NCBI GenBank assembly: GCA_028718785.1
Contig: JAQULB010000002.1
Location: 84,750-148,749 of the forward strand
Direction of reading: 5' to 3'
Source: Minisyncoccota bacterium
Lineage (GTDB): Bacteria > Patescibacteriota > Minisyncoccia > Minisyncoccales > CG1-02-41-26
Length of the DNA: 64,000 nucleotides
Below, in pieces: positions 45 through 31,575 of this stretch (the first letter of the stretch is position 1; each line of letters begins with the position of its first letter). The notes beneath the pieces were generated by a model. That model was not told where the DNA came from. It saw nothing but the letters and a program-made list of their open reading frames with translations, and made no database searches. A program made the position numbers and the translations under genes.

Positions 45-138
45 TAGGACACGACCTGCCTTCGCATAAAGCTTCGGCAAGGCAGGTAGGACATAGCTTC
101 GCCGTCGCTAAAGCTATGGCGGACAAGATAGGACATAG
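45..138 (+). promoter_or_regulatory. phased TAGGACA repeats and two GC-rich hairpins upstream of / overlapping the sigma gene start
   Basis: TAGGACA at 45-51, 87-93 and 129-135, exactly 42 nt apart; the last two are TAGGACATAG. Hairpins acctgcctt/aaggcaggt (54-62/79-87) and catagctt/aagctatg (92-99/111-118). Confidence 0.5.
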
Positions 139-655
139 TTTTACTATAAATATGGCAAGTCCAGAAAACAAAAAGTTTGCTAAAATTTACGATAAACATA
201 TAGATAAAATCTATAGGTTTATATTTTTAAAGACAGGAGTAAAAGAGGTGGCCGAAGACATCACTAGCCAAGTTTTTACTAAGGGCTGGAGAAAATTTAA
301 GCTACAGGGCTGTGAGGTTAAAAATATGTCCGCTTATCTTTTTCAAATTGCCCGAGCTGAGGTGGCCAATCACTATAGAGAAAAAAACAAGTTTCAAATT
401 ATATCCGCACAAGCAGTGGAAATAATTGATGACCAGCCAAACCCAGAAACAACCCAAGAAATAGTGGTCAATACTCAAGACGCCCAAAGTGCCTTAAGGG
501 AATTGGAAGATGGCCTGCAAGATATTTTAATTTGGCATTATGTGGAGGGAATGAGCTTTAAAGAGATTGGCGGTTTATTAAGCCGGCCAGAGGGCACGGT
601 GCGAGTAATGGCGCACAGGGCTTTGAAAGAATTACGTGAAAAAATGGAAGAATAA
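116..655 (+). CDS. ECF-type sigma-70 family RNA polymerase sigma factor
   Basis: 179-aa ORF. Region-2-like IYRFIFLKTGVKEVAEDITSQVFTKGWRKF and region-4 HTH ILIWHYVEGMSFKEIGGLLSRPEGTVRVMAHRALKELREKM. Alternative start is the ATG at 152 (MASPENKK). Confidence 0.85.
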   Translation: MADKIGHSFTINMASPENKKFAKIYDKHIDKIYRFIFLKTGVKEVAEDITSQVFTKGWRKFKLQGCEVKNMSAYLFQIARAEVANHYREKNKFQIISAQAVEIIDDQPNPETTQEIVVNTQDAQSALRELEDGLQDILIWHYVEGMSFKEIGGLLSRPEGTVRVMAHRALKELREKMEE

Positions 656-808
656 AAATGTATCAATCTGCGCCGACTCGCCTTGCTGGAGCCTTCGGCG
701 TAGCGCAGGTCGGCCAACTTTGATACGCTTTTTTGAGAGACGAAGGTTGGCCTTGTCTATTTTTGTAACGAATTGGTGATTTTTGCGTCATAATAATAAT
801 CAGGATAT

Positions 809-1525
809 ATGCAGGAAAAGCAAATCATCTCACAATTAAAAGGGCTAAAAACTATAAAACCAGCCAAGGACTGGGCTGTTTTAGTTAAAAAAGACCTGCT
901 TTTTGAGCCACTTGAATTACAAAACATTAAAGAAAAAAATAGTTTTGGAGAATCAGTATTTTCATTTTTTGCCAAACCAGCTTTTGTGGTTAGTTCTATC
1001 GTGGTGGTTGGTTTGATGATTATGGGTTCTTTGGCTTATTTTGGCTTGCAAAAACAAAATTACGATTTACAGGCCTATGTGGATAGCTTTGCTCCTCAAA
1101 CAGAAGAAAACAAACAAGCGATTGCTGGCTTGCAAGATATCCAAAACAAAATGGACGAAGTTAAAGCGGCTTTGGTGGCTTTAAAATCATCTAACAACCC
1201 AAAAGAAATTTTATCAGTGGCTGGAGTTGTAAAAAATGTGGCCAAAAATAGCCAAACAGCCATAGAACAAATTAAAAATTCCAATACTAACTTATCAAAG
1301 CAAGGACAGGCCTTGGCTAGTTTGGTAAAAGAAAGTTCTCAAGAAATAGTGAACACAACAGCCGACTTGCAAGTTGAAATGTTTAAAGCGCGATTAGCGG
1401 AGCTAAAAACAAAAACATTAACGCCAGAAGATCAGGAAAGATTAATTGCGGCGGAAAAATATTTCAATGAAGGCAATATTGACAGCGCCATTACTTTAAT
1501 TGTTAGAATTGGGGAAACAAACTAA
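809..1525 (+). CDS. single-pass membrane coiled-coil protein, putative anti-sigma partner (DUF5667-like by recollection)
   Basis: 238 aa. One TM helix (PAFVVSSIVVVGLMIMGSLAYFGL) follows a short cytoplasmic N-terminus; the C-terminal part is long and helical. Lies directly downstream of the sigma gene. No zf-HC2 motif, so the anti-sigma role is inferred from position only. Confidence 0.45.
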   Translation: MQEKQIISQLKGLKTIKPAKDWAVLVKKDLLFEPLELQNIKEKNSFGESVFSFFAKPAFVVSSIVVVGLMIMGSLAYFGLQKQNYDLQAYVDSFAPQTEENKQAIAGLQDIQNKMDEVKAALVALKSSNNPKEILSVAGVVKNVAKNSQTAIEQIKNSNTNLSKQGQALASLVKESSQEIVNTTADLQVEMFKARLAELKTKTLTPEDQERLIAAEKYFNEGNIDSAITLIVRIGETN

Positions 1526-1535
1526 TAGAACTGTT

Positions 1536-1648
1536 CTAATTATTCTAATTGCTCTAATTATTCTAAATAAGCACCAAGCTCCAATTGGGAATTGGTTATT
1601 GGGATTTATTTAGGTTAATTAATATAATTAGGTCAATTAGGTTAATTT
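1536..1648 (+). repeat. ~110-bp intergenic repeat, copy 1 (forward)
   Basis: ctaattattctaaataa...aattgggaattggttattgggatttatttaggttaattaatataattaggtcaattaggttaattt. The reverse complement of 9090-9204 aligns along nearly its whole length. Confidence 0.85.
1599..1628 (+). promoter_or_regulatory. promoter-like element inside repeat copy 1
   Basis: TTGGGA (1599-1604), 18-nt spacer, TATAAT (1623-1628), pointing at the giant surface-protein gene. Confidence 0.45.
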
Positions 1649-1768
1649 TAAAGTTTAGGGCAGTCAATAGTAATAATTGATAATTATTGTTGTTGTTTGC
1701 CCTGAAATGTCGTTTGGGGCAATTTATTTAGTAATCCAAGCCAGGCATTAGTTTAAGGAAATTTTTCT

Positions 1769-1786
1769 TCGCTAAAGCTATGGCGG
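1769..1786 (+). promoter_or_regulatory. 18-nt motif shared with the sigma-factor gene start region
   Basis: tcgctaaagctatggcgg occurs at 105-122 and 1769-1786, and both copies include an ATG. At 1780 it opens a 9-codon uORF (MAGNKGRKK) 23 nt before the surface-protein ATG. Confidence 0.5.
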
Positions 1787-1831
1787 GTAATAAAGGTCGA
1801 AAAAAATAAAATAGATTATAAAATTAAAAAA

Positions 1832-4800
1832 ATGAGTAAATTAGCAAAGAAATTCGCAACAATTGCAACAATCATCACGGTTGTGGCAATGGTTGTGGGT
1901 CCTGTTGCTCCAGCTCAAGCGCAAACCACAGCTGAGCTTCAGGCCCAAGTAGCCGCTTTGCAAGCTCAATTAACTGCTCTACTTGCCCAGCTTAACGCAA
2001 CAACTGGTGGCACCACCGGCACAACCGGAACATTGCCATCTGGCTGTTCTTTTGACAGAAATTTAAAGCAAGGCATGTCTGGAGCGGATGTAAAATGCTT
2101 GCAACAGGTTTTAAACTCTGACGCTGACACGCGAGTGGCAGTTTCTGGAGTGGGATCTGCTGGTAATGAAACAACGTATTTTGGCTCCTTAACCACAGCC
2201 GCTGTTAACAAATACCAAGTAAAACAAGGTATCGTGGCAGTGGGAACGGGTTTTGTGGGTCCTCTTACCAGAGCTAAATTGAACGCAGGTACTACAGGAG
2301 GCGCCACAGGCACAACATTGCCTGCAGGATGCACCACAAATTCGGGCTATAGCCCAACAACAGGCCAGCCATGTGGAAGCGGAACAGCTGTGGTTATTCC
2401 AACCACTGGCGTTGTTACTGCTTCTTTAGCCAGCGACAATTCAGCTTCGGCTTCTATTGTTACTGATTCAACAGCAGGCGACGGCGCGCAGTCGTTAATT
2501 CCAATGCTTAAAGTTAATTTAAGCAATGGAACAGCTAGCCCAATAACTGTAACCTCAATGAAGTTCACTCGAAGCGGTATTTCCGATGACAGTGATATTT
2601 CACAGGCCTACCTTTACGATGGGGATACCATGTTAGCTGACTATAGTTCTTTCTCGTTGACTGTTTTAACCTTTAATTCAGCTTCGTTGATAACAATTCC
2701 AGCTAATACTGTTAAAACAATTACCTTGAAAGTTGACTTGGCTGATACAACAGACGCAGGTGGAAAAACTATCAGGTTTGGCATAAACGCCGCTTCTGAT
2801 ATTGTTTCTAATGCTTCTTCAATTGGGGGAGTATTTCCACTTACTGGCAACTATATGACAACTGCTCAAACAAGCAGTTTGGGAAAGTTGACTGTGGCTG
2901 TTCAAGCAACAAATCCAGCCGCTCCTGATCCAGGCGCTGGCGTTGAAGTGATGAAATTCACTTTAGCTGCTGCTGATCAAAATATTCAGGTTAAAAAATT
3001 AGTGTTCACTGATGTTGGAACTGTGGCTTACACTGACTTAACCAACTTCACTTTGTTTGATGCCGCTACCCCGATTGGTTCGGTTGTGGCTTCAGCCAAT
3101 TCTGATAAAACAGTTGTAATGGATTTGTCAGCAAGTCCTATCTTGATTGAAAAAGGCAACACCAAGAATATGACCTTGAAGGCCGATATTGTCGGGGGCA
3201 CAAGCCGAGATTACACATTCAAGTTCCAGAATATGTATGACATTGTGGCCTATGACACTCAATACGGCATTTATGTTAAGCCAAATCAGTCAGATACTTG
3301 GACAATTTTAAGCGGCGCGAAAGGAACCATTAATAATGGTACCGTAACCGCCACTAGAGCAACCGATTCTCCAAGTGGCAATATTTCGGCCTCTTCAACC
3401 AATCAGGTTTTGGCTAAGTTTGTCTTAAAAGCCAGTGGCGAAGATGTCAAAATTTCTGATTTAACTTTAAAGATTTATGGTTCTATTGGCGTTGTCGGTA
3501 TGTATCAAACCAGTGTTTATTATAATGGCGCCCAAGTGGGGCAAACAACCACTACAATGGATACTCAGGCAACCGCAGGAGCTACTGAGGGTGTAATTTT
3601 TAGCTTTGGCAATACCTTAATTCTTCCAGCTGGAAGTGAGAAGGTTTTGGAAATTAGGTCTGATGTTAAAAACGCTTCAGGAGGTTCAATTGCGGCTGGT
3701 TCAACTTTAACCGCCCAGGTTTCTTCCTTTACGGCAACTGGAAAAACATCAGGAGCAAGCGTTACAATCGGCTCGGTGACTGGTTATCAATTAACCGTGT
3801 CAGCAGGCACGCTTGTTGTAACGGAAAATCAAGCTGTTCCTGATTGGTCTTCTTCAACTCCAACAGGAGTGGCAGGAGCCACCAATGCTTTGATTGGTTC
3901 GTTTATTCTTACAGCTGGTTCTGGAGAAGGAGCTAGTGTAACCGCGCTTACAGCGCAGATTATTGGCACAGCTAACACAGAATACCAAAATGTTCGAATC
4001 TACAAAGGAACATTAGCAAGCGGTGTCCAACTTGGCGCTGCTTTGAATAATGGGGGAACTCCAACTGTGGCAACTGACTATACCGTATATCCAAGCCCAT
4101 ATCTTAGTTTGAACGCTGGAGAGCAAGTTGTGTTAAATGTTTATGCTGATATTTTAACCGGCGCTTCCACAGCCACAATTAAGAATGTTAAAATGGGCGT
4201 TGTTTATGGAACAGGCAAAGTAACCAACACCTCAGTTAACAGTTCTGGAACAGTAACCGGCCAAAACTTAGTTGTTTCTTCTGGCGGTTATGTGGGCGTG
4301 TTTGCTGATACAAACACCCCATCGGCTGGATTAGTGGTGATGGGAACAACTGGCGTTGAGTTTGCTAAATTTAAATTATCAGCAAGCTCTTCACCAGAAG
4401 CAATGACAATTTCTGGCCTTGTGGCAACAACCACTCTTAATGCAGGAACTGCTTTGGCCCCAACAAGTTCTGTAAGTAGCATTACATTGACTTCAGCTCT
4501 TAATCCTTCTTGGAGTGTAATACTACCAAGTTTGAGTTCTGCTGGTGTTGCTGACTTCACTGGTTTGATGACAGCAAATCCATTAGTTATCCCAGCGGGC
4601 GAAGAAGATGTTATCACCTTGAAAGCCAATATAGGTGTTTATGGAGCTGCTGATTCTAATTCATATATTGTTTTTGGATTGGCAACTACAACCTATAGAG
4701 GAGAATCAGGCAGTCCAACTACCATAGCTCCAGCTTACAGGGTGGCGGGCACCGCTCAATATATCTACAAGAGCAAGCCAACCGTTACTTTAATTGCTCA

Positions 4801-5365
4801 GCCAACTGCTGGATCTACATTCTCTGATGGCACGCAAACCTTGATTAAATTCAGGGTGGCCGCTGATTCCAAGGGCGCTATTGACCTTAACAGGGTTAAT
4901 ATTAAGGTGGCAATTAATGATATTGCCACTTCAACAAGCAACTTGTATCTTTCGGGAATTAGTTTGTATCAAATTGGCAATAGCACTGTTTTAAATAGCG
5001 CTGTGAGCATCAACGCAACAAGCTCAACAAGCTATATTGATTACTCAGCAAGTTCAACTGTGTCCGCTTCTAAGTTTGGAGGCGCTTTAACTGGCGATCC
5101 TTTATCAAAGACAGGTAACATTTTGTTGTCAAATACAGATGGAACTGCTTTGAAACAAATTGGAGCTGGCAACTACGTTGACTTTGAAGTAAAAGCAACT
5201 GTTACGGGTTCGGCTCAATACGATACAATGACCTTTAGCTTGGACAACCTTGGCTCGTCTTCAACAGACACTAATGCCATTAAGTGGGGTGATACCATTA
5301 CCAATGTTATTCCTGCCACCTATGTGACCGGTTTGCCAACTGACACTTGGTCATATACTAGATAG
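1832..5365 (+). CDS. giant secreted cell-surface protein (candidate S-layer/surface-array protein) with N-terminal coiled-coil + peptidoglycan-binding anchor
   Basis: 1177 aa. Signal peptide MSKLAKKFATIATIITVVAMVVGPVAPAQA; coiled coil AELQAQVAALQAQLTALLAQL; PG_binding_1-like LKQGMSGADVKCLQQVLN...YFGSLTTAAVNKYQVKQG...GPLTRAKLN. Then ~1000 aa rich in T/S/A/V with about six diverged ~150-aa beta-type modules. Confidence 0.8.
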   Translation: MSKLAKKFATIATIITVVAMVVGPVAPAQAQTTAELQAQVAALQAQLTALLAQLNATTGGTTGTTGTLPSGCSFDRNLKQGMSGADVKCLQQVLNSDADTRVAVSGVGSAGNETTYFGSLTTAAVNKYQVKQGIVAVGTGFVGPLTRAKLNAGTTGGATGTTLPAGCTTNSGYSPTTGQPCGSGTAVVIPTTGVVTASLASDNSASASIVTDSTAGDGAQSLIPMLKVNLSNGTASPITVTSMKFTRSGISDDSDISQAYLYDGDTMLADYSSFSLTVLTFNSASLITIPANTVKTITLKVDLADTTDAGGKTIRFGINAASDIVSNASSIGGVFPLTGNYMTTAQTSSLGKLTVAVQATNPAAPDPGAGVEVMKFTLAAADQNIQVKKLVFTDVGTVAYTDLTNFTLFDAATPIGSVVASANSDKTVVMDLSASPILIEKGNTKNMTLKADIVGGTSRDYTFKFQNMYDIVAYDTQYGIYVKPNQSDTWTILSGAKGTINNGTVTATRATDSPSGNISASSTNQVLAKFVLKASGEDVKISDLTLKIYGSIGVVGMYQTSVYYNGAQVGQTTTTMDTQATAGATEGVIFSFGNTLILPAGSEKVLEIRSDVKNASGGSIAAGSTLTAQVSSFTATGKTSGASVTIGSVTGYQLTVSAGTLVVTENQAVPDWSSSTPTGVAGATNALIGSFILTAGSGEGASVTALTAQIIGTANTEYQNVRIYKGTLASGVQLGAALNNGGTPTVATDYTVYPSPYLSLNAGEQVVLNVYADILTGASTATIKNVKMGVVYGTGKVTNTSVNSSGTVTGQNLVVSSGGYVGVFADTNTPSAGLVVMGTTGVEFAKFKLSASSSPEAMTISGLVATTTLNAGTALAPTSSVSSITLTSALNPSWSVILPSLSSAGVADFTGLMTANPLVIPAGEEDVITLKANIGVYGAADSNSYIVFGLATTTYRGESGSPTTIAPAYRVAGTAQYIYKSKPTVTLIAQPTAGSTFSDGTQTLIKFRVAADSKGAIDLNRVNIKVAINDIATSTSNLYLSGISLYQIGNSTVLNSAVSINATSSTSYIDYSASSTVSASKFGGALTGDPLSKTGNILLSNTDGTALKQIGAGNYVDFEVKATVTGSAQYDTMTFSLDNLGSSSTDTNAIKWGDTITNVIPATYVTGLPTDTWSYTR

Positions 5366-5414
5366 AAAAGGAATAGCTAATAGTAAGTAGCAGACAGTTA
5401 GATAGAACGAACAA

Positions 5415-5450
5415 ACCCCTTCCGTCTTTGGCGGGGGGGGTTTTGGTTTT
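5415..5450 (+). terminator. possible intrinsic terminator
   Basis: cccc...gggggggg followed by ttttggtttt, just after the stop of the giant gene. The stem is short. Confidence 0.45.
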
Positions 5451-5509
5451 GGCCTGCCGTTCGGCTGAGCTCACGATGAAGCCCTGAGCGAGCGAAGCGA
5501 GTCGAAGGG

Positions 5510-5547
5510 TTATCCACAGGGGTTGACAAGAAATTATGTTGTATAAT
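5510..5547 (+). promoter_or_regulatory. DnaA-box 9-mer + TTGACA + TATAAT (non-canonical spacing)
   Basis: TTATCCACA (5510-5518), gggg, TTGACA (5523-5528), only a 13-nt spacer, TATAAT (5542-5547). Promoter function is uncertain because of the short spacer. Confidence 0.35.
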
Positions 5548-5601
5548 AAATAAATCTTAAAAATTATAAAAAGGTCGGAAAATTATTGTTTTTGATTTTC
5601 A

Positions 5602-5674
5602 CCCCCACACCAATCTTTTTTAAGTTTAAGTTGTATCAAGTAAGTAAAAGATCTTGATCGGATTGGCGTGGGGG
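5602..5674 (+). promoter_or_regulatory. long stem-loop in the leader of the small repeat-protein gene
   Basis: cccccacaccaatc (5602-5615) pairs with gattggcgtggggg (5661-5674) at 13 of 14 positions. Inner stem atcaag/cttgat. Ends 25 nt before the ATG at 5700. No T-run, so not a terminator. Confidence 0.55.
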
Positions 5675-5699
5675 TTAATAAAAAATTTTAAATTAAATT

Positions 5700-6254
5700 A
5701 TGCAAAATAAAAAACAAACTATTGCTTTAATTGTAAGCGTGGTTTTAGCGGTTGGTTTGATTGTTGTTGGGGTTAACGCTGTTACCACAGTTGGAAACAA
5801 TGTTTCGGTTGGAGGCACTTTGGCTGTTGGTGGCACAGTAGCTTCTGTTGGGAATCTCAGCGTTGGCTCAAAAGCCACCACAACCGCAGCTTCTGGTAAT
5901 TTTGCCACATTGGGAACCATAACAAGCACAGGCGATTTATATGTTGGCGCCAAAGCCACTACCACAGCCGCAAGCGGAAATTTTGCCACTCTTGGGAGTA
6001 TAACTGGCAATGGAGATTTGTATGTAGGTGCTAAAGCCACCACTACCGCTGCTTCTGGAAATATTGCCACCCAAGGAACAATTACCTCAGCAAGAGCCAC
6101 TGATATTGGCTGGGCCGTGGCGTCATCAACAAATGCGGCTTGCAATACCACTTGCACAAGCGCTTGTGTTTTTGGTTGGGATGAAACTGATGCTGTTATC
6201 ACGAATTGCACTGAAGCTACAGCCGATGTTTGTGTGTGCGCTGGATCTAATTAA
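5700..6254 (+). CDS. small secreted repeat protein with Cys-rich C-terminal domain
   Basis: 184 aa. Signal/TM MQNKKQTIALIVSVVLAVGLIVVGVNA; three 27-aa repeats VGAKATTTAASGNFATLG.IT..GDLY; C-terminus has 7 Cys (ACNTTCTSACVFGWDETDAVITNCTEATADVCVCAG). Confidence 0.7.
   Translation: MQNKKQTIALIVSVVLAVGLIVVGVNAVTTVGNNVSVGGTLAVGGTVASVGNLSVGSKATTTAASGNFATLGTITSTGDLYVGAKATTTAASGNFATLGSITGNGDLYVGAKATTTAASGNIATQGTITSARATDIGWAVASSTNAACNTTCTSACVFGWDETDAVITNCTEATADVCVCAGSN
5862..6092 (+). repeat. three tandem 81-nt (27-codon) coding repeats
   Basis: Units at 5862-5942, 5943-6023 and 6024-~6092. The amino-acid sequence is nearly identical between units while many synonymous positions differ (e.g. gcagcttctggt vs gccgcaagcgga). 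Confidence 0.85.
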
Positions 6255-6268
6255 CGATTATTATTTAT

Positions 6269-7204
6269 ATGGCAAAACTTTTAGTTAAGAAAATTGTAGT
6301 TTTGCTCTTGTTTGTTGTTTTGGGTTTTTCAGCAAGCTCTGCATTGGCTGTTTACAATGATGTGCAGTACACTGCTGGAGATAATGTAATTATTTACTTA
6401 AGTGGCGAAGCGCTTAACTTAACAGTAATAAGCGGGAATGTTGCTTCAACAACTGTTAACGCTAGCAATGTTGTGTTTAGAATGGTTCCCAGCTCCACAA
6501 TCTCGCTTACTTCAAGCAACAGAAAAATAATGTCCAATTCTTTGGGCATTAATACAGTTTGCACCAATTCTGAATCGCAGATTTATTTGCAAGCAACGAG
6601 CACCACATTAGCTGATATTACAGTAACTATTGGAGGAGATTGTCCAGCGGTTAATACGGGAGGAGAAACGCAATCACCTGTTGTGACTATTACAACGCCA
6701 GTCACCTCAACAACTTCATCGCAGGAAGCTACAACAACCACAACAACCGAAACAGTCACCCCAACAACCACAGCGCAAGCAACCACAACTATAACAGTTC
6801 CAGCTGTTACCTCTTCGACAAGTTCAGGGCAAGCAAAGCCGATTTCAGAAATGACTGTTTCTGAATTGCAGGCAGAAATTACCAGAATTACCGCTTTGAT
6901 TAGTCAATTAACCGCCAGTATTGGAGGAGGAACAACAGAAACAGCCAGCAAAATTACCAAGGTTTTAAAAATGGGGATGAAAGACACTGAAGTTACATTA
7001 TTACAAACATGGTTGGCAAAAGATGCGACCGTTTATCCTGAGGCAAAAATAACTGGTTATTTTGGACCCTTAACCTTTGGAGCGGTTGTTAAATTTCAAG
7101 AAAAATACGCCAGCGACATCCTAACTCCATTGGGATTGTCAAGCGGGACGGGTTTGGTGGGAGCTTCAACAAGAGCAAAGCTAAATAGCTTATTTGCCCC
7201 GTAG
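6269..7204 (+). CDS. secreted Thr-rich protein with C-terminal coiled-coil + peptidoglycan-binding domain
   Basis: 311 aa. Signal peptide ...GFSASSALA; Thr/Ser linker TTPVTSTTSSQEATTTTTTETVTPTTTAQATTT; coiled coil VSELQAEITRITALISQL; PG_binding_1-like LKMGMKDTEVTLLQTWLAKD...GYFGPLTFGAVVKFQEKY...STRAKLN. Confidence 0.75.
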   Translation: MAKLLVKKIVVLLLFVVLGFSASSALAVYNDVQYTAGDNVIIYLSGEALNLTVISGNVASTTVNASNVVFRMVPSSTISLTSSNRKIMSNSLGINTVCTNSESQIYLQATSTTLADITVTIGGDCPAVNTGGETQSPVVTITTPVTSTTSSQEATTTTTTETVTPTTTAQATTTITVPAVTSSTSSGQAKPISEMTVSELQAEITRITALISQLTASIGGGTTETASKITKVLKMGMKDTEVTLLQTWLAKDATVYPEAKITGYFGPLTFGAVVKFQEKYASDILTPLGLSSGTGLVGASTRAKLNSLFAP

Positions 7205-7250
7205 TGAGCTATGCTCTATTACTGGGGTTTGGAAATTAAGTTAGTTAAAA

Positions 7251-7295
7251 CAAAAACGCTTTTGTAATTTTATTTGCTAAGCGTTTTTGTTTTTG
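7251..7295 (+). terminator. intrinsic terminator
   Basis: Perfect 11-bp stem caaaaacgctt / aagcgtttttg followed by tttttg. Confidence 0.8.
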
Positions 7296-7380
7296 CTAAA
7301 ATAATAATATTAAATCTCGAATTGCAAATTTTCTAAACCATGGATTTAAATAAAGGTAAAAGGAATATTTGATATTTAAT

Positions 7381-9081
7381 ATGCATATAAAACAAAAATT
7401 AATTTTGGCAGTTTTTATTTTTGGTTTAGTTTTTTCTTTTGCGCCGAGATTTTTTGTGTTAGCGAAAAGCGAAGGAGACAGGGAAATCTTTTTTGTTGAA
7501 AAATTATACGACCAAAACCAAAGAAGCCAAGTTGAGTTCCGCTTGGTGAAAATTTCCAACAATGCCTACTTTTATGTTGAAAGCAATTGGTATTTAACCA
7601 TAACTGATCAAGAAAGAGGGTTAATAAATCAAAATTTAGCTATTTTAGCAAGTAGTTTTGATAAGGAAATTTATCCAAAATTAACAAATTTTTGGGGAAG
7701 CGAGTGGAATCCGGGGATTGATAGTGACTCAAAAATAACAGTTGTTTTTGAACAGTTAAACAAAGGAGTGGCTGGTTATTTTAATGATGCTAATGAATAC
7801 CTAAAACAACAGTCGCCTTTTTCTAACCAAAGAGAGATGGTTTTTTTATCAACAGATGTTCTAAAAAGCAGTTTAGCAGAAAGTTATTTAGCTCATGAAT
7901 TTACCCACTTAATTACTTTTAATCAAAAAGACCGGCTTACTGGAACAAGCGAAGATGTTTGGCTTAATGAAGCCCGGGCTGAGTACTCTCCTTTTTATTT
8001 GGGTTATGATGGTCAGCAGAATCAATACAGTAATTTGCAACAAAGAGTAAATGATTTTAGCAACAAGCCATCTGACTCTTTGGTTATTTGGAATGGAGAA
8101 GAAAGCGATTATGGAGTAGTGGATATTTTTATCCAATATTTAGTTGAAAAATATGGCCAAAATATTTTGGTTTCTTCGTTGCATTCAAAAAAAACAGGCG
8201 TTGACTCAATTGACGAAGCATTGTTAAGCAGGGGAGAGGGTAAAAGTTTTTTGCAGATTTTTAACGACTGGGCAACAGCTGTTTTTTTAAATGATTGCTC
8301 TTTGGGGGATGTTTATTATTATAAAAGCAAAGAGTTGATGAATTTACGTTTGCCAGCTAATTTAATTGTTTTGCCTTCAATTGGAAAAACAAATTTATCG
8401 CTTAATTATTCTTTAATGCCATGGTCAAGCAACTGGTATAAGTTTATTGGCTCTGAAGGGGATTTAAAGCTTACTTTCAATTTTGATTCCAAAGCGCTTT
8501 TTGCTTTAAAGTATGTTTTATGCGAAATAAAAGACGGGTGTTCGGTTTTTGGTTTTGATGTTTCTGACTCAAAAAAAGAGTTGGTAATTAATAACTTTAG
8601 CCAGCATTATTTAAGCTTAACCTTAATACCATCAGTTAAACCAAGATTTTCAAATGCAGCTGGACTGGGAGATGTTTATTCTTTTTCAGTTGTGGCTCAA
8701 ACCAGCAACGAGCCATCAAAGTTTCAAGAAGAAGAGTTAATTAAATCGCTTTTAGCGCAGATCGAGCAATTAAAAATTCAAATAGCCAAAGTTCAGGCCC
8801 AGCTTTTAGCAATGGGAAAAACAAACCTTGTGTGTTCTGGCTTTCAAACAAACCTTTATTTTGGCTTGAGTTCAAGCCAAGTTAGTTGTTTGCAAGAATT
8901 TTTAAAAAATCAGGGCCCCGATATTTATCCACAAGGCATTGTTTCTGGATATTTTGGAAATTTAACTAAAACGGCTGTTATTAATTTTCAAGAAAAATAC
9001 GGGATTGCAAGCACTGGGTATGTGGGAGTGTTGACAAGAGCGAAAATTAATCAAATGCTATTGCCAACGCAGCAAAAATAG
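7381..9081 (+). CDS. secreted HExxH metallopeptidase-like protein with C-terminal coiled-coil + peptidoglycan-binding domain
   Basis: The ORF track starts at a TTG (7369); the ATG at 7381 gives MHIKQKLILAVFIFGLVFSFAPRFFVLA (signal). HExxH in YLAHEFTHLITF; coiled coil LLAQIEQLKIQIAKVQAQLLA; PG_binding_1-like LSSSQVSCLQEFLKNQG...GYFGNLTKTAVINFQEKY...LTRAKIN. Confidence 0.7.
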   Translation: MHIKQKLILAVFIFGLVFSFAPRFFVLAKSEGDREIFFVEKLYDQNQRSQVEFRLVKISNNAYFYVESNWYLTITDQERGLINQNLAILASSFDKEIYPKLTNFWGSEWNPGIDSDSKITVVFEQLNKGVAGYFNDANEYLKQQSPFSNQREMVFLSTDVLKSSLAESYLAHEFTHLITFNQKDRLTGTSEDVWLNEARAEYSPFYLGYDGQQNQYSNLQQRVNDFSNKPSDSLVIWNGEESDYGVVDIFIQYLVEKYGQNILVSSLHSKKTGVDSIDEALLSRGEGKSFLQIFNDWATAVFLNDCSLGDVYYYKSKELMNLRLPANLIVLPSIGKTNLSLNYSLMPWSSNWYKFIGSEGDLKLTFNFDSKALFALKYVLCEIKDGCSVFGFDVSDSKKELVINNFSQHYLSLTLIPSVKPRFSNAAGLGDVYSFSVVAQTSNEPSKFQEEELIKSLLAQIEQLKIQIAKVQAQLLAMGKTNLVCSGFQTNLYFGLSSSQVSCLQEFLKNQGPDIYPQGIVSGYFGNLTKTAVINFQEKYGIASTGYVGVLTRAKINQMLLPTQQK

Positions 9082-9089
9082 GGCAGAAT

Positions 9090-9204
9090 ATTATTAAATT
9101 AACCTAATTAACCTAATTATACTAATTAACCTAAATAAATCCCAATGACTAATTCTCAATTGGGATTTGGGGTTTGGTTATTATTTAGAATAATTAGAAT
9201 AATT
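9090..9204 (-). repeat. ~110-bp intergenic repeat, copy 2 (inverted)
   Basis: Its reverse complement reads ...ctaattattctaaataataaccaaaccccaaatcccaattgagaattagtcattgggatttatttaggttaattagtataattaggttaattaggttaattt. The same TTGGGA-N18-TATAAT is present on the minus strand (9145-9116). Confidence 0.85.
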
Positions 9205-9206
9205 TT

Positions 9207-10127
9207 ATGAAAGTTTTAGTAACTGGCGGAGCTGGGTTTATCGGCTCTCATTTAGTGGATAAATTAGTGGAGTTGGGCCACTCTGTTTTGGTTTTGGATA
9301 ATTTAAGCAATGGCAAAAAAGAAAATATCAATCCCAAAGCCGAGTTTCACCAAGTTGATATTTGCGACTTTGAAATAATGTGTTTGTATTTTAAAGATAT
9401 TGATTATGTTTTTCATTTAGCGGCTTTACCAAGAATTCCTTTTTCCATTCAAAATCCAATAGGCACTTCTAATGTTAATATAATGGGAACTATCAATGTT
9501 TTTGAAGCGGCAAAACAAAACAAAGTTAAAAGGGTAATTAGCACCTCATCTTCTTCGGTTTATGGCAATCAAGATAAACTGCCCCTAAAAGAGGATATGG
9601 CGCTTAACCCAATAAGTCCCTATGGATTGCAGAAATGGGTTGGAGAGCAATTTGCTAAACTTTATACTGAAATATACAATTTGCCAGTTGTTTCTATAAG
9701 ACCCTTTAATGTTTACGGGCCTCGTCTTGATGTTGAATCAGATTATTCTTTGGCCTTGGGAAGATTTTTAAAATTAAAATCTCTCAACAAGCCCTTAACT
9801 ATAAATGGGGATGGAGAACAAACAAGAGGGTATTGTTATGTTGAAGATTTAGTTGAGGCGTTTATTTTGGCAATGCAAAGTCAAAAAGTAAAAGGCGGAG
9901 AAGTTATAAACGCGGGAAGCAACAAGGCCTACTCCATTAATTTTTTAGCTGATTTAATCGGGGGAGAAAAAGTTTATGGTCCAGAAAGGCAGGGAGATAT
10001 AAGACACACTCAAGCGGATGTTTCTTTGGCAAAAGAGCTGTTGGACTGGGAACCGAAGATGGATTTTACAGAAGGAGTAAAGAAAACAATTGAATGGTTC
10101 AACGAACAAACGAAAAACGAAAAATGA
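9207..10127 (+). CDS. NAD-dependent epimerase/dehydratase (extended SDR, UDP-sugar epimerase/decarboxylase-like)
   Basis: 306 aa. VLVTGGAGFIGSHLV Rossmann motif; YGLQK-type YxxxK (SPYGLQKWVGE). Confidence 0.85.
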   Translation: MKVLVTGGAGFIGSHLVDKLVELGHSVLVLDNLSNGKKENINPKAEFHQVDICDFEIMCLYFKDIDYVFHLAALPRIPFSIQNPIGTSNVNIMGTINVFEAAKQNKVKRVISTSSSSVYGNQDKLPLKEDMALNPISPYGLQKWVGEQFAKLYTEIYNLPVVSIRPFNVYGPRLDVESDYSLALGRFLKLKSLNKPLTINGDGEQTRGYCYVEDLVEAFILAMQSQKVKGGEVINAGSNKAYSINFLADLIGGEKVYGPERQGDIRHTQADVSLAKELLDWEPKMDFTEGVKKTIEWFNEQTKNEK

Positions 10128-10191
10128 AAAACCACAAGTAAAAATCAAAAATGAGCGAACTTTTTCACTTTTAATTTTTAATTTTATTTAT

Positions 10192-11040
10192 ATGTTAAAC
10201 AAAAAAATTAACGAAATTACAATTGGGATAATGGGCGTTGGCATGGTGGGAGGAGCTTTAAGGGATTATTTTGAAAAAAAAGGCAAGGCGGTTGGGAAAG
10301 ATTTATTTTTATATGACCCGTTTAAGGGTTTTGATTCTGTTGATGAAATCAACAAAGCGGATGCTATTTTTATTTGTGTACCCACTCCTTATTTGAAAGA
10401 TGGCAAGGGATTTGATTTATCTTATGTTGAAGACGCTTTTTCTAAAATAAAAGGAGAAAAAATAATAGTTATAAAATCAACTGCCCTGCCCGGAACAACG
10501 CAAAAGTTTCAAGATAAGTATCCCCAGCATAAAGTTTTGTTTAACCCAGAATTTTTAACAGAGTTAACCGCTGAGCAAGATATGAGTTATCCGGACCGTC
10601 AAATAATTGGCGCAACAGAACAAAGTTTAAATGTGGCTAAAGATATAATGATGCTTTTGCCGTTGGCGCCTTATGAAAAAATAATGCCCTCAACAGAGGC
10701 GGAAATGGTAAAATACTTTGGCAATAATTGGTTTGCTGTTAAGGTGGCTTTTGCCAATCAAATGTATGATGTTTGCTCTAAGTTGGGAATAAACTACGAT
10801 ATTGTTATGGAGGCCGCCGCCGCTGACAAACGCATTGGTCCGTCGCATTTAGTGGCTTTACATAAAGGATATCGGGGTTATGGGGGCAAGTGCCTTCCAA
10901 AAGACATTAAGGCGTTTATTCAGTTTGGGGATTCTTTGGGAGTTGATTTAAAAGTTCACAAAGCCACCGAGGCGGTTAATAATGATTTAATGAAAGCTCA
11001 AAATATTGAAGACCCAGAAAAGTATTCAAAAAGAGAATAA
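10192..11040 (+). CDS. UDP-glucose/GDP-mannose dehydrogenase family protein, short form
   Basis: The ATG at 10192 (MLNKKINEITIGIMGVGMVGGAL) is preferred over the upstream in-frame ATG at 10090 that overlaps the previous gene. Has an NAD-binding GxGxxG and the catalytic-Cys motif GGKCLPKD. Only ~45 aa follow that Cys, so the usual C-terminal UDP-binding domain appears absent. Confidence 0.65.
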   Translation: MLNKKINEITIGIMGVGMVGGALRDYFEKKGKAVGKDLFLYDPFKGFDSVDEINKADAIFICVPTPYLKDGKGFDLSYVEDAFSKIKGEKIIVIKSTALPGTTQKFQDKYPQHKVLFNPEFLTELTAEQDMSYPDRQIIGATEQSLNVAKDIMMLLPLAPYEKIMPSTEAEMVKYFGNNWFAVKVAFANQMYDVCSKLGINYDIVMEAAAADKRIGPSHLVALHKGYRGYGGKCLPKDIKAFIQFGDSLGVDLKVHKATEAVNNDLMKAQNIEDPEKYSKRE

Positions 11041-11061: not shown

Positions 11062-11745
11062 ATGACAAAATATGACGCAATAACAAATTTTTTAACTACT
11101 CAATCAACGCAAATTTCAATTACAGGCTTTGTTGTTGGCTTGATTTTAACGGCTGTTCTTTCGTTTGCGCTTGGATTTATTTACATTAGATATGGAAGAT
11201 CTATTTCTAATAAAAGAGCGTTTGCTAAAAATTTTATTTTAGTGGCCATGACCACAATGTTTATTATTACAGTGGTTAAGGTTTCTTTGGCTTTATCTTT
11301 GGGATTGGTGGGGGCTTTGTCTATTATTAGATTTAGAACAGCCATTAAAGAACCAGAGGAATTAGCTTATCTATTTTTGGCTATTAGTATTGGTTTGGGA
11401 TTTGGGGCTGGGCAAATTTTAATTACTTTAATCGCTTTTTTAGCTATAGTTTTGGTTATTTTTATAACTGCTTTTTCTTATAAAAAAGAAAAAAATCAAA
11501 ACCTTTATCTTACAATCTCCGCTGAAAATTTAATTAATGTTTCTTTGGAAAAAATTGTGGAGATTCTTAAAAAATATTGTTCGGGCGTTGTTTTAAAAAG
11601 ATTTGATGAAACAAAAGAAATTTTAGAGGCCTCTTTTTTGGTTGAGTTTGCCAATTTTGAACAACTAAATAAAAGCAAGGCGGAATTGAGGGGGCTTGAC
11701 GATTCTTTAAAGATTAATTTTTTGGATAATAAGGGCGTTCAATAA
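11062..11745 (+). CDS. DUF4956-like integral membrane protein
   Basis: 227 aa with several TM helices. The motif LSIIRFRTAIKEPEELAYLFLAISIGLGFGAGQ matches my recollection of DUF4956. Sits directly upstream of the CotH and VTC genes. Confidence 0.65.
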   Translation: MTKYDAITNFLTTQSTQISITGFVVGLILTAVLSFALGFIYIRYGRSISNKRAFAKNFILVAMTTMFIITVVKVSLALSLGLVGALSIIRFRTAIKEPEELAYLFLAISIGLGFGAGQILITLIAFLAIVLVIFITAFSYKKEKNQNLYLTISAENLINVSLEKIVEILKKYCSGVVLKRFDETKEILEASFLVEFANFEQLNKSKAELRGLDDSLKINFLDNKGVQ

Positions 11746-14420
11746 TGGAAATAAAGAGAGCAGAAAAAAGAATATTCGCGCGTTTTTTCGTTAATAATTT
11801 TAAAAAATTAGTGTTAAAGCGCAAGAGGATAAAATGGCTAATTTTGTTTGTGGTGAGCTTTTTTGTTTTATTGAGCATTGTTTTGTTAAGTATTTATTAT
11901 GGAATGATTTTGCACAGGTCGGGAACAGCTGTTAATATGAAAGAATTTATTTTGGGAGTTTATAAAGAAAATTTTAAAATTATTCCCAATTATTTAAGTG
12001 GAGTTTTTTTAGCCAAACCAGAAAAAATTTTAATTGATATATCTTTTAAAAATTATCAGAAATTAGCTTCTGCCCGTTTTATAGCTTTAGAAACCGGAAG
12101 TTTGCCAAGCTCTCCAGATTATGAGGTGCCCTGTTCCATAAGATATAAAGATAAAACTTATAAGGCCAAAATTCAAGTTAAGGGCACCAGCAATGACAAT
12201 TGGATCCAAAAAAGCAAATGGTCTTTTTCAGTGAAAATTGAAAATAATGAGGCATTGTTTGGGATGACCGAGTTTGCCTTGCAATTACCAAGAATTAGAG
12301 ATTACTTAAATTGTTGGACCTTGCATCAAATGCTTGCTGATTTTGGACTGCCTCATTTAAGATACAATTTTATTGACGCTACTATTAATGGCATTCATCT
12401 TGGCATTTATGCCATGGAGGAACATGCCACCAAGCAATTGGTTGAGAGTAGCGGTTTTTATGAGGCGCCAATTATCCGGTTTGACGAATCGCTTCTTTGG
12501 CAAAGAGAGTTGCCTTTTATTGATGATAATGAAACTTATTCACAAAGCGCGATTGATGGATTTCAAACCAACAAGCTGATAAAAAATGAAGAGCAGTCAA
12601 AAATGTTTGAAAAAGCCAGAAACCTGTTAGAGTCATTTAGAAGGGGGATTTTGCCAGTTAGCAAAGTTTTTGACACAGAAAAATTAGCCAACCTTTTTGC
12701 AGTGATTGATTTGAGCGGGCATCACCATTCAACTGGTTTTGGGGTTATAAGATTTTATTATAACCCGGTTACTTCCTTGCTTGAGCCCATTGGCTATAAT
12801 AACCAAATGATTATTCCTTTGGAGTTTCAGGGTTTGCGGAGCGAAATAAATGCCAACGAGGTTGAGCCAATAGAGCTTATCCAAAGCAAACATTTAAATT
12901 TTCAAAGCGCTTTTTTTAAAGACAAAGAATTTTTTAAACAATATGTGAGAGCTTTAAATAAAATTTCTCAAAAAGAGTTTTTAGATAATTTTTTTACCAA
13001 ACACAAAAAGGACATGCAGGATAAATTGCGAATTTTGTATCAAACTTATCCCGGTTATAAATTTGACAACAAAAAAATTCTTTATAAAAATCAGGACTAC
13101 ATAAAAGTAATTTTAAATCCCAAACAGGCCTTTCAGGCCTATTATAAAAGTTTTTCGCGGGGCTCTTTAATTCTGCAATTGGGCAATATTCAGTCCTTGC
13201 CTGTTGAAATATTGGGAGTTTCTTTTGAAGATAATGAATTTTTTAAACCAGAAAAAGAAATAATTCTTCAGCCAAAAAATACTCATCAAGTAATTGATTT
13301 TGGAGAGTTTATTTTTAAAACGCCAAACGATTTTAACTTTTCTTCTGTGGATCTTGCCAAAATGAAGGTGCAGTATAAAATTCTTGGATTAGACGATGTA
13401 AAAACAGAGTCAATTGACAACTGGCCGTATTTTGACCAAAGTTTTCTTAATGGCGATTTAATTAGACAGAATCCCAACTGGAAAATGTTTTCTTTTTTGC
13501 AAACAGACGAGCTATCAAAAGTTATTTATATAAAACCCGGTTTTTGGAATATTAAGCAAAATTTAATTTTTCCTTCAGGATACACCATAGTTGCTGATAG
13601 AGAAACAACTTTGAATTTGTCTAATAAGGCAACTATTTTATCTTTTTCTCCGTTGCGGTTTTTGGGAGAAGCAGACCATCCAATTATTATTGAATCTCAA
13701 GATAAAACTGGATTTGGCGTGATTGTTTTAAATGCTAAAGAAAAGTCATTTTTACAGAATGTTCATTTTGAAAATTTGTCTGCTCCTGCCGCCTCTTTTG
13801 ATGGCAATTGGTTAATGACGGGCGCTGTTAATTTTTACCAATCGCCGGTTGAATTTTCTTTTTGCAATTTTGGGGCTAATTTGGCCGGGGACGACAATTT
13901 ACATTTAATCCGCACTCAAGTGAATATTTTTGATTCTGTTTTTAACATGAGTTTGGCTGATTCTTTGGACGCTGATTTCACGCAGGGCAAAATAGCCAGG
14001 ACTTCTTTTTATAACTGCGGGTTAAAAGATAGTAATGGAGATTGTCTTGATTTTTCTGGAAGCAATATTGAACTTGAAGATGTTTTTATTAATAAGGTTG
14101 GGGACAAGGGCATAAGCATTGGGGAAAACACTAATATTTTTGGAGATAGAATAAAAATTCAGAATGCTTCTATTTGCGTGGCTAGCAAAGATAAGTCAGT
14201 GGCGGTTTTTAACAATATTTCAATTTTAAATAGTAAAATTGGGTTGGCTGTTTATCAAAAAAAATCAGAGTTTGGTCCAGCCCAGCTTTCGATTAAATAT
14301 TTGAATAAAATAAATATCAAAAGGCCATATTTAGTGGAAGAGGGCTCAATAATGAAAGTTGATGAAAAAAATATTAAGCCCAATGATAAAAATGTTGCTG
14401 AAGAATTATATGGAAAATAA
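11745..14420 (+). CDS. CotH kinase family protein with C-terminal right-handed beta-helix region
   Basis: 891 aa with an N-terminal TM anchor. CotH-like core KIQVKGTSNDNWIQKSKWSFSVKIE...LRYNFIDATINGIHLGIYAMEEH. C-terminal repeats (NLHLIRTQVNIFDSVF, GDCLDFSGSNIELEDVFI, GDKGISIGENTNIFG) are typical of parallel beta-helices. Overlaps the previous stop by 1 nt (TAATG). Confidence 0.75.
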   Translation: MEIKRAEKRIFARFFVNNFKKLVLKRKRIKWLILFVVSFFVLLSIVLLSIYYGMILHRSGTAVNMKEFILGVYKENFKIIPNYLSGVFLAKPEKILIDISFKNYQKLASARFIALETGSLPSSPDYEVPCSIRYKDKTYKAKIQVKGTSNDNWIQKSKWSFSVKIENNEALFGMTEFALQLPRIRDYLNCWTLHQMLADFGLPHLRYNFIDATINGIHLGIYAMEEHATKQLVESSGFYEAPIIRFDESLLWQRELPFIDDNETYSQSAIDGFQTNKLIKNEEQSKMFEKARNLLESFRRGILPVSKVFDTEKLANLFAVIDLSGHHHSTGFGVIRFYYNPVTSLLEPIGYNNQMIIPLEFQGLRSEINANEVEPIELIQSKHLNFQSAFFKDKEFFKQYVRALNKISQKEFLDNFFTKHKKDMQDKLRILYQTYPGYKFDNKKILYKNQDYIKVILNPKQAFQAYYKSFSRGSLILQLGNIQSLPVEILGVSFEDNEFFKPEKEIILQPKNTHQVIDFGEFIFKTPNDFNFSSVDLAKMKVQYKILGLDDVKTESIDNWPYFDQSFLNGDLIRQNPNWKMFSFLQTDELSKVIYIKPGFWNIKQNLIFPSGYTIVADRETTLNLSNKATILSFSPLRFLGEADHPIIIESQDKTGFGVIVLNAKEKSFLQNVHFENLSAPAASFDGNWLMTGAVNFYQSPVEFSFCNFGANLAGDDNLHLIRTQVNIFDSVFNMSLADSLDADFTQGKIARTSFYNCGLKDSNGDCLDFSGSNIELEDVFINKVGDKGISIGENTNIFGDRIKIQNASICVASKDKSVAVFNNISILNSKIGLAVYQKKSEFGPAQLSIKYLNKINIKRPYLVEEGSIMKVDEKNIKPNDKNVAEELYGK

Positions 14421-31490: not shown

Positions 31491-31537
31491 TTTCTAATAA
31501 CTAAAATGGGAACAGGGATTTTTATTCATTGAGGTCT

Positions 31538-31575
31538 GGTTATTGGGATTTATTTAGGTTAATTAGGTTAATTTA
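31538..31575 (+). repeat. third (partial) copy of the intergenic repeat family seen at 1536-1648 and 9090-9204
   Basis: ggttattgggatttatttaggttaattaggttaattt shares the 27-nt core ttattgggatttatttaggttaatta with the other two copies. Confidence 0.85.

Follow-up and report, generated by a model that had tools for sequence, protein, structure and literature searches.

The 64-kb stretch of DNA from a Minisyncoccota bacterium analyzed here (in the following, the window) opens with a cell-surface locus that is conserved in the Paceibacteria (Parcubacteria/OD1, candidate phyla radiation). Its core order is a HTH_DeoR regulator, an extracytoplasmic function (ECF)-type σ factor, a single-pass membrane partner, and a giant secreted protein; the gene of an M30-like metallopeptidase often comes after the giant gene, and a large glycan-biosynthesis cluster lies beyond. 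Our best reading, to which we incline on balance, is that the giant protein is a peptidoglycan-anchored, probably glycosylated surface-layer (S-layer)-like array protein under σ/anti-σ control. The genes concerned are the following:

1-47, + strand: 3′ end of the upstream HTH_DeoR-type regulator gene (frame 3, ...VGDNNNTEYKLKSK, stop codon TAG at 45-47)
152-655, + strand: ECF-type σ factor, 167 aa, in an open reading frame (ORF) open from 116 (Pfam Sigma70_r2 and Sigma70_r4_2; NCBIfam)
809-1525, + strand: single-pass membrane partner, 238 aa (transmembrane prediction, orthologue alignment)
1832-5365, + strand: giant surface protein, 1177 aa (Pfam, AlphaFold2, hhalign)
7381-9081, + strand: M30-like zinc metallopeptidase, 566 aa (profile search, AlphaFold2, Foldseek)

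All six ORFs proposed in an earlier reading of the letters alone (the sequence-only reading) are present, two of them with a corrected start position. That reading had tied the σ factor and its partner to the surface genes and had named synteny in relatives as a point on which the idea could fail; the synteny turned out to be very strong, down to 30% identity. Loci and contigs of relatives are labeled L001 and so on. In all seven loci collected by way of the giant protein (giant identity 94, 71, 56, 46, 37, 35, and 30%), the σ and membrane-partner genes lie directly 5′ of the giant gene on the same strand, and a HTH_DeoR gene precedes the σ gene in five of the six with enough upstream sequence. 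The first 47 nt of the window translate into a sequence that matches the C-terminal end of the HTH_DeoR protein encoded before the σ factor in L001. A second collection was built from peptidase orthologues in 236 species-representative genomes, from which 37 loci with at least 8 kb of upstream sequence were used for synteny. Eighteen of these contain the σ factor and the membrane partner; an anchor-bearing protein of about 600-1500 aa follows immediately 3′ of the pair in every one of the 18, and the DeoR gene stands before the σ gene in 17. In both collections, the membrane-partner gene always comes immediately after the σ gene.

The giant protein consists of a signal peptide (aa 1-30), a coiled-coil helix (aa 33-57, nt 1928-2002), a PG_binding_1 domain (aa 68-155, nt 2033-2296), and six homologous β-sandwich modules (aa 190-1177, nt 2399-5362). 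The presence of about six diverged β-type modules, suggested by the sequence-only reading, was borne out by hhalign: all 15 pairwise comparisons of the six segments (∼150-185 aa each) gave 91-99% probability. An AlphaFold2 model based on 94 homologues (mean model confidence, pLDDT, 86) is all-β from residue 194 to 1177. The skewed composition noticed earlier is likewise real, with T 14.2, A 11.5, S 10.8, G 10.2, and V 8.8% adding up to 55%. The mature protein has a mass of 116 kDa and a pI of 4.8, and its four cysteines all fall in the anchor region, leaving the modules Cys-free. At E≤1e-30 the family comprises 4,190 representatives of 50%-identity clusters, most of them co-linear over 1100-1400 aa; where the source records carry a name, it is “peptidoglycan-binding domain-containing protein” or “hypothetical protein”, and the organisms named there belong to the Patescibacteria. 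The window itself matches a metagenome-assembled genome of Ca. Pacebacteria. Beyond PG_binding_1 in the anchor, Pfam and NCBIfam gave no match in the giant protein, and our literature search found no published study of the family. A phage origin was considered and rejected, as tblastn found no match in 50,697 phage records.

The anchor of the giant protein is shared. The sequence-only reading had described four secreted proteins, three of which carry a module of coiled coil, short G/T linker, and PG_binding_1-like domain. Each of the four indeed has one N-terminal hydrophobic, signal-like segment, and the three copies of the module align over ∼115 columns with 30 invariant positions. A hidden Markov model built from the module matches only these three ORFs in the window. 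PG_binding_1 (PF01471) is called by Pfam in all three proteins, with 25.1, 23.4, and 42.7 bits against a gathering score of 23; in the 311-aa protein described below, the match covers only profile positions 2-41. In the AlphaFold2 models, the domain of the giant protein is a compact helical fold (helices 85-95, 119-132, and 144-154; pLDDT ∼90), and that of the peptidase has helices at 499-510, 527-539, and 550-565. The PG_binding_1 domains of SleB and CtpB were weak matches from the peptidase module. Unlike in these and other peptidoglycan hydrolases and proteases, where the domain binds the wall, the domain of the window proteins is part of a fixed cassette with a preceding coiled coil and G/T linker, found at either end of structural proteins and enzymes.

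The idea that this cassette moves between passengers also gained support from 1.35 Mb of related loci, where the complete module stands at the N-terminus of 36 proteins and at the C-terminus of 108 and the passengers measure 270 to 2334 aa. Conversely, the alignment of many giant-family members begins only at about profile position 160, and they have a different N-terminal region of ∼220 aa without recognition by Pfam. The proteins P0171, P0215, and P0143 illustrate this arrangement, with a giant-type six-module body behind a ∼220-aa N-terminus that bears repeated “...VY.V..G....F.....Y..W...” motifs. Here, the region takes the position of coiled coil and PG_binding_1, perhaps as an alternative wall anchor; Pfam found no alternative wall-binding domain in the members without the N-terminal anchor. 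Because the module occurs at either end of many passengers and the giant body has alternative N-termini, we regard the anchor as portable with good support.

Within the regulatory pair, the σ ORF is present as proposed, but its start is most likely ATG 152 and not position 116, as judged from an alignment with L001 and L009, where the called genes encode 168 and 167 aa, respectively. The protein then begins MASPENKKFAKIYD... The assignment to the ECF σ factors holds: both Sigma70_r2 and Sigma70_r4_2 score above the Pfam cut-offs, and the NCBIfam superfamily model sigma70-ECF (TIGR02937) gives 75.2 bits (cut-off 42.9). The best-scoring family is BldN (TIGR02952) with 99.9 bits, which is below the equivalog cut-off of 206.45; the σ factor would thus be BldN-like at best.

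For the membrane partner, the predicted single span was recovered as one hydrophobic stretch at about aa 55-80. The protein has a short, basic cytoplasmic part of ∼50 aa, one transmembrane helix, and a ∼155-aa extracytoplasmic helical domain that is DUF5667-like. An alignment of 21 orthologues revealed a common N-terminal motif, M.EK.LI.KLK.L..IKP...W, in which P18 and W22 are invariant, together with a conserved C-terminal helix pair. DUF5667 (PF18915) is matched by 11 of these 21 orthologues (best E 6.6e-12). One of the matching proteins, from L007, shares 26% identity over 251 aligned positions with the window protein (BLASTP E 4e-7), which appears to be a divergent member of this set. Judged by position and topology, it is a putative anti-σ factor, for which a role in sensing the envelope is plausible.

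The regions in front of the σ gene and the giant gene carry distinct conserved elements, and the giant gene ends in a strong hairpin:

45-51, 87-93, and 129-135, + strand: three TAGGACA boxes, 42 nt apart, in front of the σ gene
1669-1722, + strand: two overlapping conserved hairpins in the giant leader (long stem at ∼1669-1709; TTGCCC..GGGGCAA at 1697-1722, then a T-rich run)
1791-1799, + strand: AAAGGTCGA box, the conserved giant-leader element
5413-5443, + strand: strong hairpin of terminator type 3′ of the giant gene (14 pairs followed by a T-run)

The TAGGACA heptamer occurs nowhere else in the window. In the spacer between the DeoR and σ genes of relatives from the range L001-L089, two to six copies are found, with at least two within 150 nt upstream of the σ gene in 22 of 26 loci, and the density there is 19.2 per kb against 0.095 elsewhere (∼200-fold). 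The boxes are direct repeats, often with an inverted partner (GGTAGGACA..TGTCCTACC), and the sequence changes with the lineage, to GTATGACA in L045 and GCGGACA in L049. They are probably an operator in front of the σ gene, with the adjacent DeoR-type protein as the candidate binder.

The giant leader has a different signal. AGGTC is present in 21 of 23 giant leaders and in 2 of the 23 corresponding σ-upstream regions, and a AAAGGTCG(A/G) box can be found in essentially all giant leaders. The two overlapping hairpins of the window leader are kept in five genomes of its clade, with compensatory changes in three pairs. In clades of the Nealsonbacteria/Staskawiczbacteria type, the box is embedded in a longer element, which reads AAGTCGCGA..CTCGTGRCYAWTACGTAAGGTCGCGAG, a variable hairpin of 0-62 nt, and then AAAGGTCGRCGCGAC. 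This element of ∼60-130 nt, with repeated GTCGCGA sites (GTCGCGA..CTCGTGRCYAWTACGTAAGGTCGCGAG), occurs solely between membrane-partner and giant genes and was located in L007, L008, L014, L019, L021, L028, L038, L048, and L050 and in 34 metagenome contigs (L091-L208). The contigs come from a scan for TACGTAAGGTCGCGA, 15 nt of the leader element, which returned mostly chance matches in high-GC contigs; 34 of the 120 matches had the full motif context, and only these were used. Among them, the upstream neighbor is a membrane ORF in 24 of 25 cases and the downstream neighbor a giant or anchor ORF in 19 of 19.

Pair counts over 32 distinct leader sequences favor pairing in the sense strand, with 87% of the cells of the proposed stems paired. 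At the base pair of the inner stem, C-G was counted nine times, U-A nine times, and U-G eight times, and two further positions vary by wobble only. Cells changed on both sides numbered 24, compared with 8.6 in shuffles, and only one of 500 shuffles reached this value. A search of Rfam 15 gave no match in the window leader at E≤1 and none at the gathering score in seven loci, with noise only for the L028 leader. The longer element fits either a three-stem structured RNA or a σ70-type promoter with an operator. Together, the long leader and the strong terminator are indirect signs that the giant protein may be abundant.

How far do these data carry an S-layer or surface-array role? The protein shows the general traits of S-layer proteins: it is secreted, combines an anchor with assembly domains, is acidic and Cys-poor, and is rich in hydroxylated and hydrophobic residues. 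The S-layer proteins Sap of Bacillus anthracis and SbsB of Geobacillus stearothermophilus have an N-terminal cell-wall anchor followed by about six β-sandwich assembly domains in an acidic, Cys-free body, and their genes have a long leader, a strong terminator, and neighboring glycan genes. The giant protein resembles these SLH-anchored proteins in layout, acidity, lack of Cys in the body, and gene context. It differs from them in its anchor, a coiled coil and PG_binding_1 in place of three SLH repeats, and its body shares no sequence similarity with theirs; lattice formation by the giant protein is putative. To our knowledge, no characterized S-layer uses this type of anchor. We consider the role plausible.

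Several observations weigh against this reading and against the regulatory scheme that goes with it. Pfam and NCBIfam revealed no relationship with the known families of S-layer anchors or lattices (SLH, CWB2, SLAP, etc.), and Foldseek comparisons with the PDB returned only generic Ig-like strings of a kind that is also present in adhesins (PrgB, integrin legs, mastigonemes, pilins), with the B. anthracis Sap S-layer (9g93) at rank 34. The case is drawn from architecture, composition, and context. On the regulatory side, profile searches found neither a direct DUF5667 match in the window's own membrane partner nor, with Pfam-type profiles, a recognizable anti-σ domain. No ECF-type promoter (AAC at –35, CGT at –10) was seen by eye upstream of the σ or giant genes in ∼28 loci, and no G/C-containing k-mer is common to the two regions in 23 loci. 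A common promoter is therefore not visible, and direct control of the giant gene by the σ factor is suggested by adjacency. Moreover, many giant leaders contain TTGAAA or TGGAAA, 14-18 nt, and TAWTAC directly 5′ of the AAGGTCG box; this spacing is σ70-type promoter geometry, so that transcription would start inside the leader element and expression independent of the ECF σ factor is allowed. Finally, the peptidase adjoins the locus in only about half of the genomes.

The giant protein could instead be a wall-anchored adhesin or host-attachment fiber, in which the stalk of β modules presents the C-terminal module to a host surface. Its best fold matches are Ig arrays of the adhesin and pilus type, namely PrgB, CfaE/CfaB, and the C-domains of antigen I/II from Streptococcus mutans and Streptococcus gordonii. 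A preprint describes episymbiotic attachment to Methanothrix for relatives, the Ca. Nealsonbacteria, and three of our loci (L007, L028, and L083) are from Nealsonbacteria genomes. Other very large proteins (1750-2334 aa) in these loci carry the same coiled-coil/PG_binding_1 anchor at their C-terminus and adjoin the peptidase in several relatives (L011 1627-8631; L014 4832-10381; L026 2820-8102; L047 2034-7337; L055 11851-17085). Host-specific adhesins are usually more variable than the giant family, which keeps a constant length and a co-linear six-module layout across thousands of clusters from very different habitats. The fixed position of the gene beside glycan-synthesis genes, with its long leader and strong terminator, and the parallel between an acidic, Cys-free, Thr/Ser-rich protein made of an anchor and six sandwiches and the SLH-anchored S-layer proteins such as Sap also speak for an array. 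We hold the adhesin explanation to be unlikely, if still with a real chance of being right.

It is also conceivable that the σ factor and its partner are mere neighbors and run some other envelope-stress regulon, with the giant protein expressed constitutively from a housekeeping-type promoter and tuned by its leader. The σ70-like hexamers of the giant leaders fit this explanation, as do TTGGGA-18-TATAAT in an AT-rich element upstream of the giant gene in the window, the conserved hairpins between the membrane-partner and giant genes, and the lack of a motif common to the σ-upstream and giant-leader regions. However, the order of σ factor, membrane partner, and anchored protein is invariant and on the same strand from 94% to 30% identity in every locus with enough sequence, and the pair stays with the anchored protein although the length of the latter varies from about 600 to 1500 aa. 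Such an invariant order would be difficult to account for if no functional link existed, and we rate this explanation as quite improbable.

The sequence-only reading had seen a hint of co-regulation of the σ and giant genes in an 18-nt motif shared by the σ start region and the giant leader. The motif is exact at 105-122 and 1769-1786, the similarity extends to 24 of 28 nt, and these two regions hold its only copies in the window: no further copy was found with up to three mismatches, and none of 100 shuffles gave two matches. With the σ start most likely at ATG 152, the first copy would lie 5′ of the start codon and not across it. Comparison with relatives identified a GC-rich stem-loop family, in which the stems vary around a conserved loop (consensus CCnCC-TTCGCTAAAGCTTCGG-nGG) and of which the motif represents the loop and the 3′ arm. 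The stem-loop features of this locus are:

62-125 (about 62-95 and 100-125), + strand: two GC-rich stem-loops between the TAGGACA boxes (–16.5 and –12.5 kcal/mol)
664-720, + strand: GC-rich hairpin with a CTTCGGCG loop in the spacer between the σ and membrane-partner genes (–27.6 kcal/mol), absent from the L009 spacer
1769-1786, + strand: motif copy 2, situated in the giant leader in the slot of the variable hairpin; a GC-rich stem-loop remnant without the 5′ arm
L019 2229: a member of the stem-loop family in the giant-leader slot

The two stem-loops at 62-125 are part of a 42-nt tandem unit, the second one holds motif copy 1, and both are absent in L001 and L009. In the nearest relatives, L009 (giant protein 94% identical) and L001 (71%), the motif is missing from both orthologous positions: L009 has a different GC-rich insertion of ∼100 nt in the same leader slot and no motif in the 47 nt retained upstream of its σ gene. 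The slot is filled by CCGCCTCCGCTAAAGCTACGGCGGG in L019, by family members with a longer inner stem in L048, L092, L128, and L183, and by unrelated hairpins in L001, L009, and L010. Further members lie elsewhere in related loci (L016 4793, L021 13084, L038 3843, L069 9004, and L078 17576).

Among all family members, each of the two window copies is most similar to the other, which suggests recent duplication or gene conversion within the genome. We thus take the motif for a GC-rich hairpin repeat that was copied recently and has no demonstrated regulatory role, with the caveat that all window stem-loop copies sit in regulatory regions of this one locus, where a locus-specific role retains a slight probability. 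That the motif is a shared cis-regulatory site of both genes is most improbable, despite its confinement to the two upstream regions and the family members in the same slot of five other leaders, given its absence from both positions in the nearest relatives, the members elsewhere, the lost arm, and the missing shared k-mer. Of the earlier interpretation as a whole, the anchor, its portability, the synteny, and the peptidase fold hold, and co-regulation through this motif lacks support.

The ORF of the peptidase is present as proposed, with its start at ATG 7381 (as in the NCBI record P0249) and not at TTG 7369, which would add 4 aa (570 aa). In the numbering from the TTG, the HEFTH motif occupies aa 176-180 (nt 7894-7908) and the Glu of WLNE is aa 201, and H176, E177, H180, and E201 are invariant in five orthologues. 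The same four zinc-site residues, numbered from the ATG as H172, E173, H176, and E197, are invariant in 60 orthologues. Counted from the ATG, the protein comprises a catalytic domain (aa 30-320), a β sandwich (327-442) resembling the PPC/collagen-binding domains of collagenases, a helix (447-479), and PG_binding_1 (490-565). In the AlphaFold2 model (pLDDT 89.5), the helix between the β sandwich and the PG_binding domain is 33 residues long. Orthologues with 40-74% identity are present in L001, L004, L007, and L008.

The earlier assignment as an HExxH peptidase was confirmed by a metallopeptidase fold that is closest to lugdulysin, the M30 peptidase of Staphylococcus lugdunensis. A profile of five sequences found nothing useful among PDB sequences; a profile of 60 sequences matched lugdulysin (7bb8_A) with E 9e-12. 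Foldseek aligned the model to 7BB8 over 331 columns (E 4e-15, TM-score 0.67, root-mean-square deviation 3.1 Å). The window peptidase does not reach the Pfam M30 model and matched only Peptidase_MA_2, with 19 bits against a gathering score of 32.4; PF10460 is recorded for just two of its homologues. In common with the M30 peptidases hyicolysin and lugdulysin, it has HExxH with a downstream Glu and a catalytic fold that superposes on 7BB8. It differs from them in its low identity (19%) and in the additional PPC/collagen-binding-like β sandwich and wall anchor.

Between the giant and peptidase genes lie two further genes for secreted proteins, both confined to the closer relatives of the window:

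5700-6254, + strand: small secreted protein, 184 aa, lineage-specific and without the anchor module
6269-7204, + strand: secreted protein, 311 aa, with an N-terminal domain, a Thr-rich linker, and a C-terminal coiled coil and PG_binding_1 (about nt 6836-7201)

The 184-aa protein contains three 27-aa repeats (nt 5862-6104) and a Cys-rich C-terminus. A full homologue was found only in L009, and L001 encodes a protein that is similar at the N-terminus only. In the region upstream of its gene, the box of the giant leader recurs as a second AAAGGTCGG box at 5570-5578. In addition, TTGACA and TATAAT hexamers just 13 nt apart occur within 5523-5680, and a long hairpin (CACCCCCACACCAATC...GATTGGCGTGGGGG) precedes the start codon.

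Two copies of an AT-rich palindromic element, a feature absent from the sequence-only reading, bracket exactly the four genes for secreted proteins, and a third copy lies farther downstream:

1526-1650, + strand: left copy, ∼125 nt (fold z = –5.0)
9096-9208, – strand: right copy, inverted (85 nt, 86% complementary; fold z = –3.4)
about 31480-31575, + strand: third, partial copy, directly before another gene

The element is built of 9-nt AATTAGGTT units, and each copy is a long imperfect palindrome. The σ70-like hexamer pair mentioned above is part of the left copy (1599-1628) and points at the giant gene. The corresponding spacer of L001, L009, and L010 lacks this copy. In relatives, the element occurs in L011 (11223-11336), L010 (11140-11182 and 12236-12275), and L029 (3622-3775), the copies in the latter two being partial. 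The L011 copy stands right after the peptidase gene and is 95% identical to the left copy of the window though the peptidases themselves are only ∼75% identical, which suggests a mobile or strongly constrained element. We rejected a mobile or invertible cassette with the two repeats as its ends, because the gene order is the same in L001 and L009, which lack the left copy, each repeat is itself palindromic, and copies exist in other genomes and at a third site in the window. We read the element as a small palindromic intergenic repeat.

The glycan cluster 3′ of the peptidase gene encodes, in the window as well as in relatives, epimerases, UDP-glucose dehydrogenase, several glycosyltransferases, DegT aminotransferases, many methyltransferases, and a radical-SAM/SPASM enzyme. 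Inside it (11062-15093), the window has adjacent genes for a DUF4956 membrane protein, an 891-aa CotH-kinase-like protein, and a VTC-domain (polyphosphate-polymerase-like) protein. In L001, the gene for UDP-glucose dehydrogenase (16206-18353) contains an intein with a LAGLIDADG homing-endonuclease domain according to precomputed Pfam matches; its orthologue in the window (10090-11040) is free of an intein. Near the other end of the window, a scan for GC-rich islands found a sequence of ∼31-41 nt, TTATAGCCAACGGAACCCTGCCTGGCGTTGAAGCGCTGAAA, twice (62030-62060 and 62228-62258), 198 nt apart.

In the S-layer-like reading that we favor, the secreted proteins would be exported by Sec. The coiled coil would oligomerize the anchored proteins, and PG_binding_1 would bind them to the peptidoglycan without a covalent link. 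The giant protein would project its six modules, which are acidic, Cys-free, and rich in Thr and Ser, outward. Probably O-glycosylated by the neighboring enzymes, these modules would make up the main protein array on the surface, an S-layer-like sheath or coat that the co-anchored peptidase could trim or remodel. On the regulatory side, the conserved 33-aa cytoplasmic N-terminus of the membrane partner may hold the σ factor and release it when the DUF5667-like outer domain senses a signal from the envelope. The DeoR-type protein would act on the TAGGACA boxes before the σ gene, and the giant gene would be served by its own long leader (AAAGGTCGA box, hairpins) and its own strong terminator. 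A more complete version of this proposal would make the locus the surface layer of the Paceibacteria, in which the giant protein is the lattice subunit on an oligomeric coiled-coil/PG_binding_1 stalk, glycosylated by the adjacent cluster, trimmed by the M30-like peptidase, and gated twice, by a new-class σ/anti-σ pair and by a conserved structured mRNA leader outside Rfam. This version, taken as a whole, is tentative and rather unlikely, though with a real chance of being right.

The closest known arrangement on the regulatory side is that of σBldN in Streptomyces, which is controlled by RsbN, a single-pass anti-σ factor without similarity to classical anti-σ factors, and which thereby governs the chaplin/rodlin sheath (PMC6101532). 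Both systems combine an ECF σ factor with a single-pass membrane partner that lacks a classical anti-σ domain, the role of the partner being putative in our case. Both have a further DNA-binding repressor upstream, a candidate one in the window, and an output, here a proposed one, in a proteinaceous outer coat, and the window σ factor scores best against the BldN family model. In contrast to a true family member, its score stays below the equivalog cut-off. The cytoplasmic part of RsbN measures 117 aa compared with ∼50 aa in the window partner, which has a DUF5667-like outer domain. The Streptomyces coat is a small amyloid, whereas the candidate of the window is a 116-kDa multi-domain wall-anchored protein whose control by the σ factor is suggested by adjacency.

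The bacteria of the candidate phyla radiation make up a large part of bacterial diversity, and a surface layer has been seen on them by electron microscopy. Our literature search found no paper that names the proteins building this layer. The closest statement comes from the Nealsonbacteria preprint, which only notes that “three peptidoglycan-binding proteins” might account for the envelope observed by cryo-electron microscopy. The giant protein is the best current candidate. What is new here is the giant family as a surface-array candidate, together with the uncharacterized regulatory elements; wall-anchored array proteins and the logic of ECF σ and anti-σ factors are of known kinds. The locus thus offers a concrete and testable surface-layer candidate with thousands of members, a fixed genomic address, and a confident structural model. 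Its wall anchor is portable, and a partner protease and a dedicated set of regulators accompany it. The TAGGACA operator, a probable one, and the AAGGTCG leader would provide defined cis-elements for studies of gene regulation in bacteria that have not yet been grown alone.

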